Below are positions 2,919 to 31,865 of a stretch of 53,375 bases of DNA, piece after piece. Source of the DNA: Prorocentrum cordatum (taxonomy: Eukaryota); NCBI GenBank assembly GCA_963575745.1, contig CAUYUJ010000322.1, forward strand, positions 62,001 through 115,375. Direction: 5' to 3'. Below the pieces are notes generated by a model. It ran no database searches, was not told where the DNA came from, and saw only the letters and a program-made list of their open reading frames with translations. Every line of letters starts with the position of its first letter. Within the stretch, counting starts at the first letter, position 1. Position numbers and translations under genes: made by a program.

Positions 2919-4275
2919 ATGACCTCAGCCAAGGAATATTATCTCGTGAAACTGAGTTGCCTCATGTACTGTGTGACTCGCCTGTCCCTCCTGCCCCCGC
3001 TCCTGTGCAAAATCGTCGGAAGTTGATCTCTGACATGTATCGCAACGTTCGCCAGCGTCGGGAGGAGCCATCCCAGACCTCGTCGCAACCGATCTCGGAG
3101 CCTCCTCGTAAAAGAGCACGCCAGAGCTTTGCACATAAGTGGGCCGCCGCATCTATGCAGAGCGCGCTGTGTATGTTGCATGCGTCTGGAGAGTACACCA
3201 CACATCGTGATGCCATGGTTCGTGCTGCTGGTGTCCGCGGTCGTGTTCTTTCTCGTCGGCGTCCGCATCGGGTTATGCAGAGTCTCCAGCCCTGGTTCAC
3301 GGTGTTTGAGGTCACTCAGGGGCCCCACTGGGATCAGAGTATGTGTTGGACGGAGTTAGGTTGGAAGGTCTTCTTAGTGGACACGCTACAGCAGTTTAAT
3401 CTACCTAAGCTATTGGAGTTCTGCTTGATAAAAGATGCTATTTCAGGCAACCACTGGAAGGAGGAGGAGGAGAACAAAACGGAGGCTCAACAACAACGTG
3501 AACAGGATCGTGCTTCTAAAAGGATTGCCACTCTGTATCCGGATGAGACTACTTGGAGGATCAACCCTGGATATCTGGCCTTAGAAATGAGGGGAGATAG
3601 CCAGTGTGTAACACGTTCGCTGACGGGCAAAAACAGATGCTTGAATGAAAGGTTCAGCCAAACAATTGCTGCCATGCAAAATACTCTGTATTCCGTGTGT
3701 AAGCAGTTCCAGATCTACAGTCCTGAAGCGGGCCGTGATATCTGGAAATGGGTCTATCGGGAGGGGAACACAGAGACCACGAGACACATGTGGCCAGAGA
3801 AGGGCATACTACATTTGACGTGCGGTGGGATCTCGATGCACTTTCATCTATTCGTTCGGGTCGATATAGTGTACACGCGGTGAGAGGCTCTTTTGATGGT
3901 GGCAGATGTGAGTTAGGCACATCGTGCGGATGGGTGATTGACATTTTCATCTCTGCTAATTTACCCCCTGCTTCCCTTCCCCCTGGCCTTCCTCCCAAGC
4001 GTTGGCAGCTCGGTGTTGCCAAGCGTGCTTTCGTGCTCCCCTCCCATTGTACTGTCACCCAGGCGGAGCTTGCTGCATCGGAGAGTTTATTGTCGGGAGT
4101 TGTTGATTTGTGCGCACGCATGCGCTGATGGCACACTTCTTTTACAGCTTCGCTGCTTAATCTTGCCGCTTTAATCTTCCAGCTTCGCTGCCTCTGTACA
4201 GCTTCGCTGCTAGTGTTCTCTGTGTCCTGGCCTGCTCCCTTGGGAGCTCGAATCGGCCAGCGCAGACATCGCAGA
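2919..4275 (+). mobile_element. 3' part of a non-LTR retrotransposon: post-RT region, RNase H-like domain with permuted motif order, 3' UTR
   Basis: LEMRGDSQ (3581-3604), then WVYREGNTE[fs]DHETHVA (~3750-3795), then VRGSFDGG..GW (3880-3935) and TQAELAA (~4057-4077), stop at 4128. The upstream region aligns by eye with 29730-29960 (MLHASG..RDAMV vs MLHSLG..RDAFV; WTELGWKVF vs W*EQGFQVF). Confidence 0.8.
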
Positions 4276-7200
4276 CCAGGTTGAGGGTTCACCGCCGGTG
4301 CCAGTTGGCAGACCCGACGTTCAGAGACAATGTGGTGACCTGGGGTGGGTTTTCCTAAGATTTGAAGGATATTTGACCATTCATTTTGAGAAACCAGATT
4401 TTTCGCACCTATAGTGGGTTATGCCGCGTCTGCCAGTAAAATTCTCAGGTCCGTAGGTGCAGTATTACTATCAAAACACTTGGAGCAACCGACGTTGGAT
4501 AAAAACAGAAGAACACGATTTTTCGATTTTTCGTTTCTCGCTCCAGGAGCTTTCTTCATGTGTTCCGACGATCGCCGTGCAAGAAAAGAGCTGTAGCGGC
4601 TTACGCCACGTCTGCCAGTCAAATTCTCAGGTATGTAGATATAATATTACGTTCAAAAGACTTGCTGGGACCGTCGGCCGTTTCGAGTCATCTTGACACG
4701 CATTGACGGTTTTCTGTACTTATCTCGAGATTTCGGACAGCTACAGAGCTGATACTTAGAGAAACCAATTCAGAATCATCAGGCGCGTTCGTTCGTCCTC
4801 ATCGAGAGCTCTGAACTCGGTCTGCTGCTCGAGCTAGGTTCGTAAACCTATTCGTCTTCTTCGAGTTATTTTGACGAGTTGTGTTGGTTTTCTGTACTTA
4901 ACTTACAATTCAGAGCTGGTACGCACATGAGAGGGTTCTGTATTATTAGGCACGTCCGTCTGTTACATCGAGCGGTCTGAACTCGGTCTGCTACTCAAGC
5001 TAGGTCCGCAAAACTGTTCGTATTCTTCAAGTTCTCTTTGTAGGCTCTGTCCGTCTTCTGTACTTAACTGAAGCTGTTGCAGAGTTGCAGAGGTGGTACG
5101 CACAGAAGCCGATCCACAATTATCAGGGGCGTTCGGCTGAAGCATCTAGAGCTCTGAACACAGTCTATCCGAGCTAGGTCCGCAAAACTATTCGTATGCG
5201 ACCGATTTTTTTTCGAACTGAATTTTCTCCACTTAACTCGAGCTGCAGATGAACTTGAGAGCTCTTTCGCACAAAAATCTTGGAGAACATTCCCTTTATG
5301 TGTACGGGGCAGCCCCGCACGAGGAAAGAGCTCTACGAAGCTCCCGGTGGTAACCTGGTTGACGGTTTACCGCCGGCTCCCAGTTGGCAAGGAAAATCTC
5401 GACGGACCTTGGTGACTTTTGATCGGTTGAAAATTTTGTTCTCGAAATTCCTGAATTCGTTTGAGCTCTAGTATTTTTTCCCGTGATATTCGATCTTATT
5501 CCCGCTCGCCGTCTTGATCTCAGCTCGATCAGGTACCTTGTACTGCCAACGGACGGGATCGGCTGTTTCGAGTGATCTTGATACGCGTTGTCGGTTTTCT
5601 GTACTTAACTCGAGCTGTAGGACAGCTACAGAGTTGATATTTGATAGGAACCACTTCAGAATCGTTCGTCTGTCTCATCCAGAGGTCTGAACTCGGTCTG
5701 CTGCTCGAGCTAGATCCGCGAAACTATCCGTATTGTTCGAGTGATCTTGAGAGATGCTGTCGGTTTTCTGCACTTAACTCGGGCTGGGGTGGCTGCACGG
5801 CTGGTAGTCACAGACGCCGATTTGGAGACATCAGGCGCGTCCGCCTGTCGCATGCAGAGGTCTGAACTCGGTCTGCTACTCCAGCAGGTCGCGAAACCTG
5901 CTTGTATCGCTCGAGTCATCTCAACTAGCGCCGGCGGTGAACCGTCAACCTGGTCACCGGCGGGAACCTCGTAGAGCTCCTTGCACCCGTAAGAAAGCTC
6001 AGGATCGAAGCTGACATCTTCTGGGAGCTTTTCTAGAAAAACGTCAAATTAAGATTATTCGGAGTGAACATGAAGTCGGTTCTGGGAAGTCAACTATTTC
6101 TAAAACTGGCTCTAGAGAGCTGAGCTGCTGAGGGAACAAAGTTTATATGCCAATGCTCGGCGTAAAAATCTGCTTCCTCAAAATGAATTGTCAAATATCT
6201 TTCAGATCTGAGCAAAACCGACCCAAAGTCACCACTTTGTCCTTTCTGGTCGGGTCGACCAACTAGCTCCACCCCGCGCCGGAATTCCTCTAGCTCATCA
6301 ACGAAGAGCTCTACGAGGTACAGGGAATGTCGGTTTGCTGTACTTAACTCACGCTCTAGGTAGGGGAGCTACAGAGCTGATGCGCACAGAACCTGATTCG
6401 GAAGCATCATGCGCGTTCGTCTGTTGCATCCAGAGGTCTGAACTGAGCTTGCTACTCGAGCTAGGTCCGCAAAACTATTCGTATTCTTCAAGTCACCTTG
6501 ACAGATGTTGTCCCTTTTCTGTATTGAACTCGGGCTGTAGGAGAGCTGCAGACTGATGCAGAAGCATTGTGAGCGTTCGTCTGTTGCATCGAGAAGTCTG
6601 AACTCGGTCTGCTACCCGAGCTAGGTTCACAAAACTATTCGTATTCGACCGACAGTTTTCTTTCCAAATGGTGGTGCATTTCTTCACTGATCTCGAGCTG
6701 TTTTTCGGCCGAAAAGTCAGAAGGACGTCATGAGGCGCAAAGCATCTAGACGCTTGGTTTGGGTCTGTTGTGAGTGCAGACGCCAAGCACGGATTCGTAC
6801 TCTGCTATTTTCTTCCTAATGGTATTTTCTACGCGCTGCAGATAAGCTGCAGAACTGTTCAGCACAGCAATATCACTAGACGCCTGAGATCAGTCTGCTA
6901 TCAGCGCTCGGGCTGAAAAACTTTTCGTTCTCTGCTAATTCTTTGGACATAATATATGGTCAGGAAGCTCTACGAGTCCCCCGGCGGTAAGAAAGGTTGA
7001 CGGTTTACCGCCGGCGACCAGTTAGCAAAATTCCGAAAAGGGACGCGATCATACCTTCCGCGGCCTGGCTCGGCCGATTTTGCAGTTCTAACCATTCGTT
7101 TGGGCTGATAATTGCGCAGAGCAAAGCTTTGTATTGGAGAAGTTACCTTTAAAACGCTCAGCTCATTCTGTCGACGAATTTTCCCGAGCGAAGCCAGGGA

Positions 7201-12301: not shown

Positions 12302-12660
12302 TTTCAAGTTTTGAATCGTACCCTACTCCAATCGCCATCAGAGGTGCCTTCGATGGCGGGGTGTGTCCTTTGGGATCAGGATGTGGTTTTTGGCTTCATA
12401 TTGGCATGTTGAACAGAGAATACGTGAGTGAGGAGCTCGGATTTGCACAGCCTAGCCCTGTCGGGACTGCTACGCCTCTCGTTTGGAGAGATGTGGCTGA
12501 GGCCGCGTGGCTCCTTGAAGGAGCGACAATCACGTAATGTGAACTTAGTGCCGCCGAGGCGCTTCTTTGCGTTGCTCGCTCGTTGCTTTGGGACTTGCGA
12601 GACTCGTCTCCTCCAGCTGTCTCGCAGCTGGTGCACATGAGCCCAAACAAACAAAACAAA
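12302..12660 (+). mobile_element. 5'-truncated non-LTR retrotransposon carrying only the terminal RNase H half and an (AAAC)-type tail
   Basis: Translates IAIRGAFDGGVCPLGSGCGFWL...WRDVAEAAWLLEGATIT*CELSAAEALL (not in the ORF track). This matches 3880-4128 and 30435-30710. It is flanked by near-direct repeats at 12279-12301 and 12661-12684. Confidence 0.85.
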
Positions 12661-14610
12661 CCGAGGTTGACGGTTTACCGCTGGCTCCCAGTAACTCGTA
12701 GAGTTTCCCGTAGCTCGTTGCTGGAAGCTTAAGAGTATTTCCGGGGCGCCGGAGAGCTAGTTCGCAAGAAAAATCTCGACAGACCTTTTGCTAACTTTTG
12801 GTCGGTTGAAAATTTTGTTCTCGAAATTCAACAATTCGTTTGAGCTCTAGTATTTTTCCCCGTTATATTCGATCTTATTCCTGCTCGCCGTCTTGATCTC
12901 AGCTCGATCGGGTACCCTTTACTGCCAAAAAGCACTGCGGCGGGATCGGCCTTTTCAGTCATCCCGACAGGCGTTGTCGGTTTTTTGTGCTTAACTCGAG
13001 ATTTAGGAAAGCTACAGAGCTGATAGTCGCAGAAACCGATTCAAAATCATCAGACGCGTTCGTCTGTTGAACCGAGAGGTCTGAACTCGGTCTGCTACTC
13101 GAGCTAGGTCCGCGAAACTATTCGTATTATTCGAGTCATCTCGACAGGTTCTGTCGGTTTTGAGGTCTGAACTCGGTCTGCTACTCGAGCTAGGTCTGCA
13201 AATTTATTCGTATCATTCGAGTCATCTTGACAGGTGCTGTCGGTTTTCTGTACTCAACTGTAGGACAATGACAGAGCTGGTACGCACAGAAGCCGATTCA
13301 GAATCATCAGGCGCGTCTGTCGCTAGCATGTAGAGGTCTGAACTCGGTCTTCTACTCGAGCTAGGTCCGCGAAGTATTCGAATTCTACGAAATTTGTTGA
13401 CGGATGCTGCCGATTTTCGGTACTTAACTCGAACTGTAGAAGAGCTACAGAGCTGATGCGCATATGTAACGGATTTAGAATCATCGTGCGCGTTCGTCTG
13501 TTGCATCCAGAGGTCTGAACTCGGTCTGCTACTCGAGCTAGGCTGCGAAACTATTCGTATTCTTCGAGTCATCTCGACAGGTGCTGTCGGTTTTCTGTAC
13601 ATAACTCGGGCTGTAGGGAATCTTCAGAGCTGGTACTCACAGGAACCGATTCATCAGGCGCGTCTGTCTGTTGCATCCAGAGGGTAGCAATGGGAAGGAT
13701 ATTGTCAGCGGCAATGCTATCTAGCCGCCTGAGACCAGTTTGCTATCAGCTCGGGCTGAACAAATTTTCGTTCTCTGCTAATTCTTTGGACATAATGCGT
13801 GGAAAAGAAGCTCTACGAGTCTCCCGGCGGTAAGAAAGGTTGACGGTTTACCGCCGGCGCCCAGTTGGACACCCCGCCTGGACGGACAAACTTGGCGGAC
13901 GCAACTTTGTTGAAAACAAGGGCATCAATTTTTCGAGTGCCAAGCTGAGATTCGAAGCAGTCTCGTCGTATTCTGAGCCTCTCCTCAAGTGTGAAAGGTC
14001 TACGAGGGCCCCAGCGGTAACCTGGTCGACGGCTTGCCGCCGGCTCTCAGTAACTCGTAGAGCTTCCCTAAGAGCGACATAGCGAAGCTAGAGAGTAATA
14101 CCTCGTAGAGCGCTTCGGTATCAATGAGCAAGAGGAATTCCGGCGCGGGGTGCAGCTAGTGTGCCCGCCCGGCCCCGGCAGACAATGTGTGAATTTTAGG
14201 CCGATTTGCCGAGCAATTTGTGAGATGTGAGCATTCGTTTTGGGAAACTTGATTTTTATTCCCTGTTGTCGATAATCGCGCGTTTAATTGTGTAAGTGAC
14301 TAGAGCTTGCCTAAGAGCGAAGCGGCGAAGCTAGAGAGTAATTCCGGCGCGCTGGGGGGCTAGCTGGCCAAAAATATATCGACGGATGTTTCTTTGTTTT
14401 TTGACTTATGTTAAAATGATTTTGTCGAAGTCTGAGCTTTCGTTAGAGCTCCTAGTATTTTTCTCTCCATATTCGATCTTGTTCCTGCTCGCCATCTTAA
14501 TCTCAGGTCGATCGGGTGCATATGACTGTCAAAAAGCACTCAGGCGGGATCGGCTGTTCAGTGTCATCTTAGCAGGTGCTGTCGGTTTTCTTAACTTAAC
14601 TCGAGCTGCC

Positions 14611-15630
14611 TATGACACGTCATGCCACTCTCTGGGGGGAAAGGCGAGTCTGTACATATGGGGATAATGGATATAAAGAAAGCGTTTGATCATGTGACGG
14701 TTTCGCTGGTGATCCGCGCGATGGAACATCTCAGATATCCAGCAGATTTGATTATTGCACTTGTGGAGCCCATGATTGGAAACACAGCAGTTTTTGATTT
14801 CCAGGATGTGTGCAGTGAAGAGATCCTGTATAACAAGTCGGTGCGAACTGGAGGGAAAGAAGGTCCAGTACTCCTCAATATTGTGTTGGAGGCAATATGG
14901 GCCTCTATTGCTGAAACATGGGAAGCATGTAATTATGGGGTACGATTGGAAGGCGAAGGGGCACAACAGGCGCTGGTCAACCATTACATATGGGCAGATA
15001 ATGTGGTGCTGTTGGCAGCCTCGGCGAATCAGCTGAGGAATATGGTGAGTATGCTGACCGTTGCCCTCAGACGGGCTGGTATGGACTGGAAGATTGGGAG
15101 TCTGGAGTATCTGGTTTTTGGGCTGAGACAGAACCAGTGGCCACAATCATTAGTATGTGAACTGGGAGATGATATTTGTACGCGGGCTGGAGACCCCAAC
15201 CTACCTTATCAATTACGTGAGGCGGTGGTTCTGCCGAGAAAAAGTGAGTGTGACATACTGGGGGTTAATTTTGTGACGAACCCGAGGGATTTCCAAGCAT
15301 TACGGCACCGTATTGATGCAGGCAGGCGGTGTTTCTATGCTGATATTAATTTCTATCGATCACGGGCGGTGAACATGAGGGAAACAGTCAGACGGTACCA
15401 GAGCACAGTTCAACAGACTATATGCCGCGGATGTGTGGGGTGGAGCTGTAATGAACATGTACTTAACATATTGAGAAGCTTTGAAGGAATATGTCTCAAC
15501 ACAATGCGAGGATTACATAGAAACGAGACGGAAACGTGGGAGGAGTTCAGGGATCGCAGTACCAATAGATCCAGGGAGATGCGCAAAGAGGGGGGGGGTT
15601 CAAAACGTTGGTGGAGAAAGTCGTGAGATT
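14611..15630 (+). pseudogene. Non-LTR retrotransposon reverse transcriptase fragment (domains 3-7 and thumb)
   Basis: GIMDIKKAFDHV, VRTGGKEGPVLLNIVLE, HYIWADNVVLLA (14991), CDILGV. It is truncated by satellite on the 5' side and by a simple repeat on the 3' side. Confidence 0.9.
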
Positions 15631-27433: not shown

Positions 27434-28030
27434 GTTTGTCTTCCTTCGTCCGCGCACGTGCGTCGAGGCATTGCCTGCCCTGCTGTCGTTATCCCGTTTC
27501 CCAGTTAGAAGTGCTTGAGAGCGCCTGCAGAGAGAATCCGCCACCGAGAAAAAATTATAGCCCATCCGTTGCCATTGCAGCAGGCCGCATCTACCACCGT
27601 CGTTGATCGTGCATTTCTCGGGGAGCGCACGACAACCGCGCGTATTGCCCGATAGGGTGCCGCCGCGCATATATATATATGAATATCCTGTACTATATTC
27701 TTAGGCTGTTTCTCCCCCTCCTCCTTCTCCTCCTTCTTCCTTCTCCTCTTCTTCTCCTCCTTCTACCCCTTCTCGTTGTCCTCCCCCGCATCCTCTCCTC
27801 CTACCCCTCCTCTCATCCTTCCCATTCCTTCTTCCCCTCCTCCTCCTGCCCCACTCCTCCTGCCCCTCCTCCTCATGCCCCTCCTCTCCTTCTCCTCCTC
27901 GCTCCTTCTTCCCCTCCGCGTCCACCTCATGTAACCGCGCCCTCGCGCGCGCGGGGTGCGATATTGCCGCGCCCGCATCCCTTTCATGTATATCGCACGG
28001 GGGCTCTACGAGTTCCCGACGGTAACCAAG

Positions 28031-28721
28031 ATTCCTGGTCACGCCCCCCCCCAAGGTGCCCAATGCTGTTTCCCTGGAGGACACGCGCAAGATGTGTCTA
28101 CTGCCCTTGGTCTCAAACTGGTATAGTATGTGTCTTGCGAGCCTGGCTGAAACCCAGCTGGCGGAGAGTGCTACTTCGCTGTGTGTGTCTCTGGGTTTTC
28201 CAGGGGGCGGAGGCCGCGAGAAATTACGGCGGTTGCGAAGAGGTTGTGTCAACATGCGGCGTGGTGGGGTAAGGGGGGGGGGGGGGGGGGGTGGGGTCTC
28301 TCTTCTTGGGGTCGGCGGACGTACTGCAATGCTTCGACTACGTATCGGTACCACTTGCGATGAAGAGTATGCTGGCTTTGGGTTTCCCACGTTCCTTGGT
28401 ATGTGCCATGCTCGCGCCTCTGGGGGGGAACAAGTGTAAGATGGCGTTCAAAGGAGTGTGCTGGGAGGACTGGGTCTCTTGGGATAAGGCCATGCGCGCG
28501 GAGGAGTGGAGAGCCCTTTGCTATTCAAGGTTGTGTCGATCTACATGTGGAGGGGTGGTGAGGAGGTGGGGGTTGCGGGGTGGGTGGGGGGTTGTGTGTG
28601 TGTGTGTTGTGGTTGTGTGTGTGGTGTGTGTGTGTGTGTGTGGGTATGGGGTGGTGGGTGGGGTGGGGTGGGTGGGGGGGTGGGGTGGGGTGGGGTGGGG
28701 TGGGGTGGGGTGGGGTGGGGT

Positions 28722-28755
<34 letters not shown>

Positions 28756-30770
28756 TGGTGGTGGTGGTGGTGGTGGTGGTGGTGGTGGTGGTGGTGGTGT
28801 GTGTGTGTGTGTGGGGGAAGCAGAATGTGGGTTATGTGCTTGAAACACCACTCCGAAACGCGCGGACACGCATCACGCATGCGTTGTGGGCGGACAACAT
28901 GTGCATTTATGCACGTTGGAGGGAAGAGCTCCAACAAATGATGCGGGACCTCGCGGAGCCGTTGGCTTGGGCTTGTTTGCGGTGGAAGCCCTCGTCGCTT
29001 GGGTTCTTGGCCAGTGGCATTCCATGGGCACCCGACGACCATATTGTTGTGCATGTGCCTGCGTATGGTGGTCCCTTCTCTCTCCAGCGTGTGAGTGCGA
29101 TGAGTGCCTTGGGGTTCCAGGTGAGCGACGCGTGGAATGCGCGCTCGGACCTTCAGTACAGCTTGATGAGAACGGACAAGGCATGGTTCAGGGATCTGCG
29201 ACACGATCAGTGTAGACAGGTACCACTACGAGAGCGTTTCCAGCGGTACTGCACCCGTGTCCAGAGTGTTGCGTTGTATGCGTGTGAGGGGATGACACTG
29301 GATAGGACGACTATACATCAATTGCACGTGTGGGAGGGTAATCACTTAGCTATTCTTGGTGGAAAACGTAAGGGTACAGGTGAGGATTGGGCGAGTTTTG
29401 TCAAGAGATGACTGATGTTTGGTCGGTCGTCCTTTCATTGTCTAGGATTTCAATCGATTGTGGAGCGTTTCTCTCCGAAACAATGGAGCTGCGCAAAGGA
29501 GATTGCTGCGTCTGCACGACCGCGCAGCACGGGCCCTGCTCTGCCACAATACGTCGACGCGGACTCGCACGCCCCGACCCGACGAGCACGGGCGCGACTT
29601 GTGAGGGAGTGGGCGAGTAACGGGAGAGCTCGCACTGAGGTTTCGATATCATCTTCGTCGAATCTACCTTCAGTTTTAGATCACGACACGCCCATGGAGA
29701 CGGAGACCGCTTCACATCTGGGTGTCCTGGAGATCACGCGTGCGGCGATGCTACACAGTCTGGGACGCGGGACGGAGCGCCGTGACGCTTTTGTGGCGAC
29801 GATGAGGTCGTCTCAGGAACGTGCGCCGTGGACTCGAGTGAGGAGCGGTGCACCACCGCGCGGTCGCAATGCGTGGGGCTGTTCATTTGTGTCGGTGGGT
29901 GGCGTGGAGTGGTGACTCAACCTAGATTGGTGAGAACAAGGGTTTCAGGTGTTCATACGTCAAGTTTGCGACGAGCACGTCTATGCATGGTTTCAGGTCA
30001 CGGAGTGTCGCGGGGCAGGAGGTGCTGCGTCTGTTGAACGCGGCCATAGTGACCCTGCAGAGGCGGAGGTGACAAGGATTGCACCACGACTGGCGGCGAA
30101 CTTCGAACATGAAACGACCTTTACACGACGGGAAGGGATTGTTCTGGAATTGAAAGGGGGTTCTGTGCTGATCACGAACTGGATGAGAGGAGTGTGGTAT
30201 ACGAACAATGGGAAATATCAGCAGCAGGTGGGACAAACATTTGATATGCTGGATGAGGCTTGTAGGAATCTGGATATTGTGACGCCTTCTTGAGGATGTG
30301 ATTTGTGGATGTACTATTGTAGAGAAAGCAATGCGCGTTCAGATACTCTCACATGGGAGCTAAGAGATCAACTTGGCATGGGTAGGAAATATATTAACCA
30401 CAACTTTATGGATTACCGAACGGAGACGCTGAGCGCGATCCGTGGTTCGTACGACGGTGGCGTCTCGGAAGCAGGGGCTGGGGGGGGCTGGTGGCTGGAG
30501 GGGGAGTTTACTTACAGGAGTGGACACAGTGTCGAAGGGCAGGGTGAAAAGGCATGGGCTTCATGGATTAGGCTTCTCGGCGAGGAGGCCTTTGGGCTAC
30601 CAGGTGAGTCCGCCGTGACGGTCTGTGAGTTTGAGGCTGCTGTACGGCTTTCGCGTTCCGCTTGCGAGATGCTGAAACAGCATCGGCACTTTTCAGGGCT
30701 CAATGTATAGCCTCCCGAGCGCCCCGCGCGTGGCCACCTGCTCGGACCGAAAGCGACCGGAAACAAACAA
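28031..30770 (+). mobile_element. 5'-truncated, decayed non-LTR retrotransposon: RT, post-RT region, permuted RNase H, AAAC tail
   Basis: PKVPNAVSLEDTRKMCLLPLVSNWY, ADVLQCFDYVS, VESPLLFKVV, LWADNMCIY (28887), LELKGGSVLI (30144), YCRESNARSD, IRGSYDGG (30450), VCEFEAA, stop 30710, tail GAAACAAACAA. The left half-site is at 28003-28030 and the right half-site at 30768-30790. Confidence 0.88.
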
Positions 30771-31865
30771 GGGTGACGGTTTACCGCTGGCTCTCAATCT
30801 CAGGGCTCTGGCTGAAGCAGAGCGCTCAAAGATGACTCGTAGAGCGCCTAAGAGCGAAGCGGCGAAGCGAGAGAGTAATTCCGGCGCGCTTGGGGGCTAG
30901 TTGGCCCGAAAATTTTCGACGGAAGTTTTGCAAACTTTTGGTCGGTTACAAACCATTTTCTCGAAATCTGAAAATTCGTGGGAGTTCTAGTATTTCTTTC
31001 CCCACTATTCGATCTTATTCCCGCTCGTCATCTTAATATCAGGTCGATCGGGTACATATTAGTGCCACAGAGCACTCGGGCGGGGTCGGCTGTTCAGTGT
31101 CATCTTGACAGATGCTGGTGGTTTTCTTGACTGAACTCGAGTTGCAGATGAGATGCAGAGCGGTTCGGTGCAGCAATCGAAAGAGAGTTATCAGAAGCGC
31201 TAGTCTCAAGTATCTAGATGTCGGAACTCGCTCTGCTACCAGAACTGGGTCCGAAAAATTAGTTGTACCCTGCTAAACTTGTAAGAGTCGATGATGACTT
31301 TATTGACTGAACTCGAGCTGCAGATGAGCTGCAGAGCTGTTCGGCACAGCAATCGAAATATATTCATGAGAAGCGCTAGTCTCAAGTATTTAGATGCCCG
31401 AACTTGCTCTACTACCAGAGCTGGGTCCGAACCACTTTTCGTACTCTGCTAGTTTTTTATGAATGAGTTGATGATGACTTTCTTGACTTAGCTCGAGCTG
31501 CAGACGAGCTAGAGAGCTGTTCGGCACAGCAATGGACACATATTCAGCAGAAGTGCTAGTCTCAAGTATCTAGATGCCCGAACTCGCTCTGCTACCAGAG
31601 CTGGGTCCGAAAATCTATTCGTACTCTGCTAATTTTCTAAGAGATTATGATGACGTTCTTGAGGTAACTCGAGCTGCAGATGAGCTACAGAGCCGTTCGG
31701 TGCAGCAATCGGACGAACATCATCAGGAACGCTATTTCTGAGTATCTAGATGTCTTAGATCGGTCTGCTACGGAGTTGAAACCAAACAGCTATTCGTATT
31801 CTGCTATTTTTTGTATTTCTTGGAGAAATGATGATAGTTTTCTCTTTTTCATTCGAGCTGTAGGC
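30771..31865. repeat. Second block of the satellite complex (diverged ~177-185-bp units)
   Basis: 30840-31145 matches 14305-14610. ACTCGAGCTGCAGATGAGCT-like motifs lie near 31135, 31312, 31492, 31668 and 31853. Confidence 0.9.

Follow-up and report, generated by a model that had tools for sequence, protein, structure and literature searches.

Are the two halves of an RNase H domain exchanged in the retrotransposon open reading frame (ORF) that ends at position 4128 of this stretch of Prorocentrum cordatum DNA, or does the unusual order of its motifs have a simpler cause? The whole stretch analysed, hereafter the window, comprises 53,375 nucleotides (GenBank assembly GCA_963575745.1, contig CAUYUJ010000322.1, positions 62,001 to 115,375), and its content is eukaryote-like: besides microsatellites and an assembly gap (2819-2918) it contains a pentatricopeptide repeat (PPR) gene and an ORF for a MULE transposase. 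The feature in question (3581-4128) is the C-terminal domain of an ORF2-like protein of a family resembling the long interspersed nuclear elements (LINEs). We conclude, at a probability of roughly 0.8, that this domain represents a naturally occurring circular permutation of a type-1 (archaeal/RVT_3-like) RNase H. Positions are those of the window, and features are on the plus strand unless stated otherwise.

Copy 1 of the element starts at the assembly gap, 5' of which its reverse transcriptase (RT) and the rest of the copy are missing. The ORF2 part between the RT and the RNase H domain (2921-3580, frame 2) is followed in the same frame by the equivalent of the RNase H C-terminal half (3581-3778), which comprises β4 with GDS (3593-3601), two helices, β5 with YRE, and the N of the NxxAD motif. 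Here the translation reads …LALEMRGDSQ… (GDSQ, 3593-3604) and …WKWVYREGNTE (WVYREGNTE, 3749-3775), and positions 3-84 of a family hidden Markov model (HMM) built from 28 outside proteins match with an E value of 3e-18. By tblastn, 2921-3778 aligned with residues 987-1275 of protein P0004 and 448-740 of P0003 (57-66% identity). The reading frame then changes from 2 to 1 within the NxxAD motif, at 3760-3778, as located by the overlap of tblastn segments obtained with intact relatives, in which REGNxEADHETH is uninterrupted at this point. Frame 1 (3775-4128) supplies the D of the AD motif, a linker, the N-terminal half and the stop, reading …AVRGSFDGG (FDGG, 3892-3903), GTSCGW (pattern GxSCGW) and TVTQAELAAS (4051-4080; TVTQAEL, 4051-4071; TQAEL, 4057-4071) before a TGA at 4126-4128. 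It matched HMM positions 77-180 (E 9e-22) and was 70-79% identical to proteins P0002-P0005. All four RNase H carboxylates are kept in copy 1. Contigs from four public sequencing runs cover parts of 3400-4300, with single contigs spanning the first half, position 3774, and the linker or second half. In the contigs of three of these runs (X1, X3 and X4) four extra bases are present behind 3774, and the frame break is therefore private to the window copy. None of the public runs listed as containing the sequence is an RNA run, and the share in each of them is small. The first base of the TGA (4126) is a G in most related contigs of the four runs, and intact relatives end a few residues beyond this point; the exact C-terminal tail therefore varies between copies.

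The same order was found in two further copies. The permuted domain of copy 2 is whole and lies in a single frame (30129-30710; HMM E values of 2e-13 and 8e-29 for two pieces), with LELKGGS at 30144, RESNARSD at ~30315 (within YCRESNARSD), YDGG at 30450 and VCEFEAA at 30621. It is preceded by a decayed RT and linker (28029-30128, identified by tblastn and translation), with in-frame TGA codons at 29409, 29913 and 29931, the RT motif C WADN, and frame changes around 28200-28500. A single frame (28488-30710) contains four in-frame TGA codons (those three and 30291) and ends in a TAG at 30708-30710; the internal stops are thus all TGA and the terminal one is TAG. For searches, the copy 2 translation (P0001) was used with TGA as X. 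An alternative code with TGA as a sense codon was considered and set aside; decay is the simpler reading because the intact relatives and a metagenome contig (L001, below) are open under the standard code. The RT of copy 2 is also interrupted at ~28560-28830 by a GT/GGT-rich microsatellite, which translates as GGVGW repeats and poly-V. Copy 3 (12307-12600) is 5'-truncated, retaining only the end of the linker and the N-half (AFDGG to CELSAA, 12346-12560, with an in-frame stop at 12535), and its 3' flank aligns with that of copy 2.

In all three copies the C-terminal half (GDS ... YRExNxxAD), where retained, precedes the N-terminal half (FDGG ... TxTxAEL), after which the end of the ORF is close. 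When the family HMM was compared with the 1206 six-frame ORFs of the window, it matched five pieces only, all belonging to these three copies (E 8e-29 to 7e-13); therefore, no spare half-domain lies upstream or downstream of any copy. Motif and HMM searches likewise revealed no FDG-type N-half upstream of GDS and no GDS/RExNxxAD piece downstream of the stops. The window copies are dead: copy 1 is frameshifted and cut by the gap, copy 2 has four in-frame stops and no longer has the GDS aspartate, and copy 3 is 5'-truncated. The initial annotation had given the motif positions and their order in the three copies exactly to the coordinate; the frameshift that it placed at ~3773 falls inside the tblastn interval and beside the four bases present in three of the four runs, and its observation that no FDG motif precedes GDS agrees with the motif and HMM searches and with the helices predicted for the upstream stretch.

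Intact relatives were found with the second half of copy 1 as a query, which retrieved four longer proteins (P0002-P0005; 70-79% identity, up to 1399 amino acids) with an RVT_1 domain. Their sequences are unbroken, reading …MELRGDSQCV … WVYREGNxEADHETH(V/L)AREG … AVRGSFDGGRCE … T(V/I)TQAELAAS…, and they end 20-25 residues past the AEL glutamate. In a HMMER search of 1.84 billion representative sequences with copy 2 as the query, 75 proteins passed E<=1e-3, and 29 of these also passed E<=1e-10. One match, P0008 (3494 amino acids, 14 weak stretches), was dropped as a spurious repeat protein. Using the RT part of P0004 as a query added P0103-P0108; all five of these that reach the C-terminus are permuted, P0108 among them although its RT is only 25% identical. 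Both motif types (the RExNxxAD type and the FDGG type) were present in 81 of 107 proteins, and 77 of the 81 showed the permuted order only; of the remaining four, two carry an extra chance match upstream beside the permuted motif and two are fragments cut before FDGG. The upstream 'FYDGS' pattern matches in P0021 and P0084 were considered as a hidden N-half and rejected, as they fall in a region homologous to predicted helices. Among the 107 proteins there was no tandem or canonical-order RNase H intermediate. The metagenome contig L001 holds a single open frame of 1379 codons (standard code) with the RT and both halves and a stop right after α1, and the 3' region after this stop resembles that after copy 1. 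The spacings are regular, with medians of 61 residues from GDS to AD, 35 from AD to FDGG (linker range 27-50), 53.5 from FDGG to the glutamate, and 25 for the tail after the glutamate (54 rows for the tail). The permutation is family-wide, as the initial annotation had proposed.

Two alignments were used for the comparison with RNase H: A1 (66 rows) and A3 (28 rows). Twelve of the 75 HMMER matches were left out of A1, namely P0008 and 11 short fragments (P0026, P0032, P0033, P0043, P0046, P0055, P0057, P0058, P0060, P0073 and P0076), as were P0003 and P0005, near-duplicates of P0002 and P0004. The catalytic columns of A1 are highly conserved among non-gap rows: the D of GDS in 46/50, the D of NxxAD in 62/65, the D of FDGG in 61/62 and the E of AEL in 54/54. 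The A1 profile matched PDB sequences of Halobacterium RNase H1 (4e19, E 1.4e-5), LC11 RNase H1 (3u3g, 1.8e-5), Sulfolobus tokodaii RNase HI (3aly/2ehg, ~4e-5) and Rv2228c (3hst, 0.014), and the four family carboxylates align with the corresponding residues of 4e19 and 3aly. The significant stretch of the profile (positions 38-111) aligns to the C-halves of the PDB RNase H chains, and a weak second stretch (133-200) aligns to their N-halves, with FDGG on FDG and AEL on AE; this swapped result was repeated with A3. A homologue search with A3 gave none of 8000 scored candidates at E<=1e-3, which is weak evidence.

At E<=10, Pfam RVT_3 was found in 26 of 66 members, with 1e-5 as the lowest E value, and wherever coordinates are listed the first-encoded part corresponds to RVT_3 positions ~62-122 of 123. 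In P0065, residues 71-87 match RVT_3 107-123 and residues 105-166 then match RNase_H 6-56 (E 0.038). Neighbours from a protein language model fell in RVT_3 and RNase_H clusters (score 0.91), which is a lead only. Judged by sequence, the first-encoded half is a statistically sound homologue of RNase H, and the second half is tied to RNase H weakly, through its motifs and low-scoring matches.

The structure of P0016 (277 amino acids) was predicted with AlphaFold2 from the 66-row alignment, using no templates. The model has a mean pLDDT (predicted local distance difference test) of 92.4 and a predicted template modelling score (pTM) of 0.81, and both halves are covered at a pLDDT of 95-98 per block. 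Residues 1-85 are helical (H8-21, H26-39, H43-47, H62-65 and H69-85), with no strands before β4. The first half consists of E97-103, which ends in GDS, H106-112, H121-139, E155-157 (YRE) and H164-174 (AD); a small strand (E179-182) and a helix (H184-188) lie in the linker; and the second half consists of E194-206 (FDGG), E209-220, E232-244 and H250-272, which carries the glutamate. The four carboxylates are D104, D167, D202 and E254. This predicted element list is the RNase H list cyclically shifted. Motifs, profile matches and model secondary structure thus agree on the chain order β4-α-α-β5-α-linker-β1-β2-β3-α1, which differs from the canonical RNase H order β1-β2-β3-α1-β4-α-α-β5-α. In the structural alignment of two AlphaFold2 models, each half resembled the opposite half of RNase H1, the aligned parts being 22-24% identical. 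The initial annotation had expected two RNase H matches in swapped order, and these were seen in three independent ways: in the PDB profile alignment, in Pfam (P0065) and in the structural alignment. Neither a canonical N-half before GDS nor a C-half beyond the AEL helix was seen in the intact relatives: their tail past the α1 glutamate measures 25 residues in the median (54 rows), and the stretch before GDS is predicted to be helical.

The helical region ahead of the permuted domain (P0016 residues 8-85, window 3290-3580) is conserved in all long members (…W.E.GW..F…, …KRLAxNxExxxxW) and matches no Pfam family. Its last helix, which immediately precedes β4, might conceivably be left over from a former α1. 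The top Foldseek matches of the full model, PelC and ribosome hibernation factors (TM 0.2-0.25), were taken as topology look-alikes and discarded.

Several results weigh against a permuted RNase H. The GDS of copy 2 has decayed to GGS (30153-30161), with loss of the catalytic aspartate. The N-half did not reach significance against RNase H by sequence (at most 4.1 bits per stretch; E 0.038 in P0065), and of the 30 proteins listed individually, P0067 only passed the curated RVT_3 cut-off. Pfam found no RNase H or RT match in nine window ORF pieces, and in P0003 and P0004 it reported RVT_1 only, leaving the RNase H part unmatched. Neither model retrieved an RNase H at E<=1e-3 when compared with the PDB by Foldseek; the partial model gave nothing at all at this threshold, with E. 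coli RNase HI ranked 40th (E 0.47). Because the order is permuted, standard annotation misses the RNase H of this family, and Pfam, Foldseek and sequential structure aligners largely fail on it.

The weak sequence match of the second half could mean that a decayed tandem duplication has left two neighbouring RNase H remnants here, which fail to fold as one. We consider this very improbable, as the halves complement each other exactly in their catalytic residues, all of which are conserved, the linker and tail have regular lengths, and the arrangement persists in long intact ORFs; a single model over both halves with the confidence given above is not expected of independent modules either. An ordinary RNase H with a diverged N-half upstream of GDS, to which the FDGG…AEL piece would be an extra, might be suspected from the conserved W/G/F stretch and the conserved helix (…KRLAxNxExxxxW) that precede GDS. 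Hardly any weight can be given to this explanation: P0016 residues 1-85 are modelled as helices without strands before β4, and upstream of GDS neither the profile searches nor Pfam gave a match to an RNase H N-half. We find it equally hard to believe that the order arose artificially, through misassembly, faulty gene calling or the joining of two tandem elements. Copy 1 does adjoin an assembly gap and a 102-bp satellite, and most relatives come from short contigs, but three separate window copies have the same order and a homologous 3' flank, L001 is one uninterrupted frame, dozens of independent contigs from several sources agree, and in the four runs single contigs cross 3774 from the first half into the linker or second half.

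A different kind of alternative accepts the permuted fold and holds that it no longer cuts RNA:DNA hybrids, only binding nucleic acid or acting on another substrate. Departures from textbook active sites do occur in the family, since RT motif C is (W/Y)ADN in all 24 RT-bearing proteins of at least 500 amino acids. Against a loss of cutting, 92-100% of rows retain the four carboxylates and the RExN/GDS contexts although the lineages are only 20-30% identical, a conservation hard to explain without catalysis, and we regard this alternative as unlikely.

If the domain is a permuted RNase H, as we favour, the chain would enter it at β4 (GDS) and pass through two helices, β5 (YRE) and the helix with NxxAD; the linker of 27-50 residues, closing the old termini, would lead to β1 (FDGG), β2 (GxGxGW), β3 and α1 (TxTxAEL), and the protein would end ~25 residues later. 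From these elements a single RNase H core would be restored, its five strands assembling as in RNase H into one mixed sheet (order 3-2-1-4-5) and the carboxylates meeting at the usual D-E-D-D metal site. An active enzyme would probably cut the RNA of the RNA:DNA hybrid (template removal) during target-primed reverse transcription. In the RNase H topology β1 and β4 are neighbouring parallel strands, and entry at β4 should therefore shift the tether to the RT only slightly. Duplication followed by trimming, the origin suggested in the initial annotation, is the standard model for permutants and would fit a domain placed at the very end of the ORF, although no intermediate was present among the 107 proteins.

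The element to which the domain belongs encodes proteins of 1180-1480 amino acids in the family members analysed. RVT_1 was detected in P0003 and P0004, in the window at 14616-15626 and in 8/9 full-length relatives. A profile of ten full-length members (A5) matched LINE-1 ORF2p (8c8j, E 1.4e-13) and R2 (4.6e-7). In the alignment to LINE-1 ORF2p, the ADN of the family RT lies on ADD; motif C is thus (W/Y)ADN and not xxDD (FADD/YADD), also in both window RT copies (28884-28900 in copy 2 and 14990-15010 in an RT-only copy). Asparagine at the second catalytic aspartate is unusual for a family that is apparently active. The odds seem to us slightly in favour of a deeply diverged LINE-like clade, sampled in aquatic-sample contigs, that replicates with an active permuted type-1 RNase H joined to this (W/Y)ADN RT. 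The RT-only copy is a fourth copy of the same element family (14637-15596; tblastn, Pfam RVT_1 4e-11, motif C WADN), and a family HMM scan found no RNase H part downstream of it.

The N-terminal region of the family has the consensus LQE…DANVEL…SDH, which we take to be like that of apurinic/apyrimidinic (AP) endonucleases. Pfam Exo_endo_phos was reported weakly in P0085 only (E 0.041), a single-sequence PDB search with the N-terminal 500 residues of L001 gave no match, and no endonuclease was among the six PDB matches of the A5 profile at E<=0.01. A fragment resembling this region (…IVALQE…) is present at 124-672 (tblastn to P0061 residues 34-143 and P0098 residues 6-78); it may be part of copy 1 or of a different copy.

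The three 3' flanks align, with a common core within ~60-150 bases of the stop or ORF end in all three copies. The 3' untranslated region of copy 1 (4129-4298) ends in this 21-base core (4278-4298), which is also common to a dispersed repeat. Allowing up to 3 mismatches, the core occurs at 15 window sites against 0 expected, namely 4278-4298, 12664-12684, 30770-30790 and 12 further sites between 5356 and 13857. These 12 are part of short dispersed repeats occupying 4.2-14 kb, which suggests a non-autonomous family, similar to short interspersed nuclear elements (SINEs), sharing the LINE 3' end. Copy 3 holds the last ~300 bp of the ORF and the common 3' flank, a 5'-truncation as in retrotransposons that lack long terminal repeats (non-LTR elements), and on these sequence features the family is classed as a non-LTR (LINE-like) retrotransposon.

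Elsewhere in the window, a satellite of 14.3 units of 102 bp (1355-2815, 95% matches) runs into the assembly gap directly 5' of copy 1. Three other ORFs gave domain matches: a MULE transposase domain at 40884-42458 (1.3e-7), PPR repeats at 51795-53099 on the minus strand (2e-6), and a low-complexity ORF at 43548-44909, also on the minus strand, which matches BUD22 (3.9e-10).

RNase H is among the best-studied folds in enzymology and protein folding and is a defining module of retroelements. If the reading proposed here is true, no retroelement documented before this family would have had a naturally permuted RNase H catalytic domain, and the retention of the permutant across lineages that are only 20-30% identical would mean that relocated termini can be tolerated by the fold in evolution. 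The family would also provide a natural experiment in which the influence of chain topology and of the RT tether on RNase H folding and hybrid cleavage can be studied, and a ready-made system for measuring the effect of the RT-to-RNase H tether on cleavage. Annotation pipelines for transposable elements would need a permuted model to classify such elements.

A permuted RNase H seems to be undescribed for LINEs. The passages retrieved in the literature search contain no description of one in retroelements, and the only near precedent in them is CIRPIN (2026), which reports that two RNase H-like domains from clusters of the AlphaFold DB are related by circular permutation (PMC13552848, Fig. 5D). 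Like the present family, that pair exemplifies natural circular permutation in the RNase H-like fold class; the CIRPIN passages give no protein names and mention neither retrotransposons nor catalytic motifs, and they neither confirm nor exclude an overlap with the family. In the 2014 survey of the RNase H-like superfamily (PMC3985635), the string 'permut' occurs 0 times.

Retroviruses and Tat/Athila LTR retrotransposons have a dual RNase H (PMC4408406 and PMC10508981). In those elements, one whole domain reportedly degenerates to a connection domain and the second whole domain stays catalytic. They share with the present family a remodelled retroelement RNase H region, presumably after duplication or acquisition, whereas here a single domain has reordered halves.

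In its motifs (FDG(G/A), AE(L/Y), GDS and RExNxxAD), the family resembles the archaeal-type RNase HI without a basic protrusion (2EHG/3ALY, 4E19, 3U3G) and RVT_3 (PF13456). It differs from these enzymes in that the halves are swapped and the termini lie between α1 and β4, in that the old termini are connected by 27-50 linker residues, which include a small additional strand and helix, and in the helical region of ~85 residues that precedes the domain. Smyshlyaev et al. 2013 reportedly described an Archaea-like RNase H in plant L1 elements; similarly, the RNase H of the present family is of the archaeal/RVT_3 type and its RT is closest to those of LINE-1 ORF2p and R2. As in other non-LTR ORF2 proteins with a C-terminal RNase H, the domain follows the RT at the end of the ORF. 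To our knowledge, the RNase H domains of those proteins have the canonical order; by contrast, the domain is permuted in every member of this family seen.

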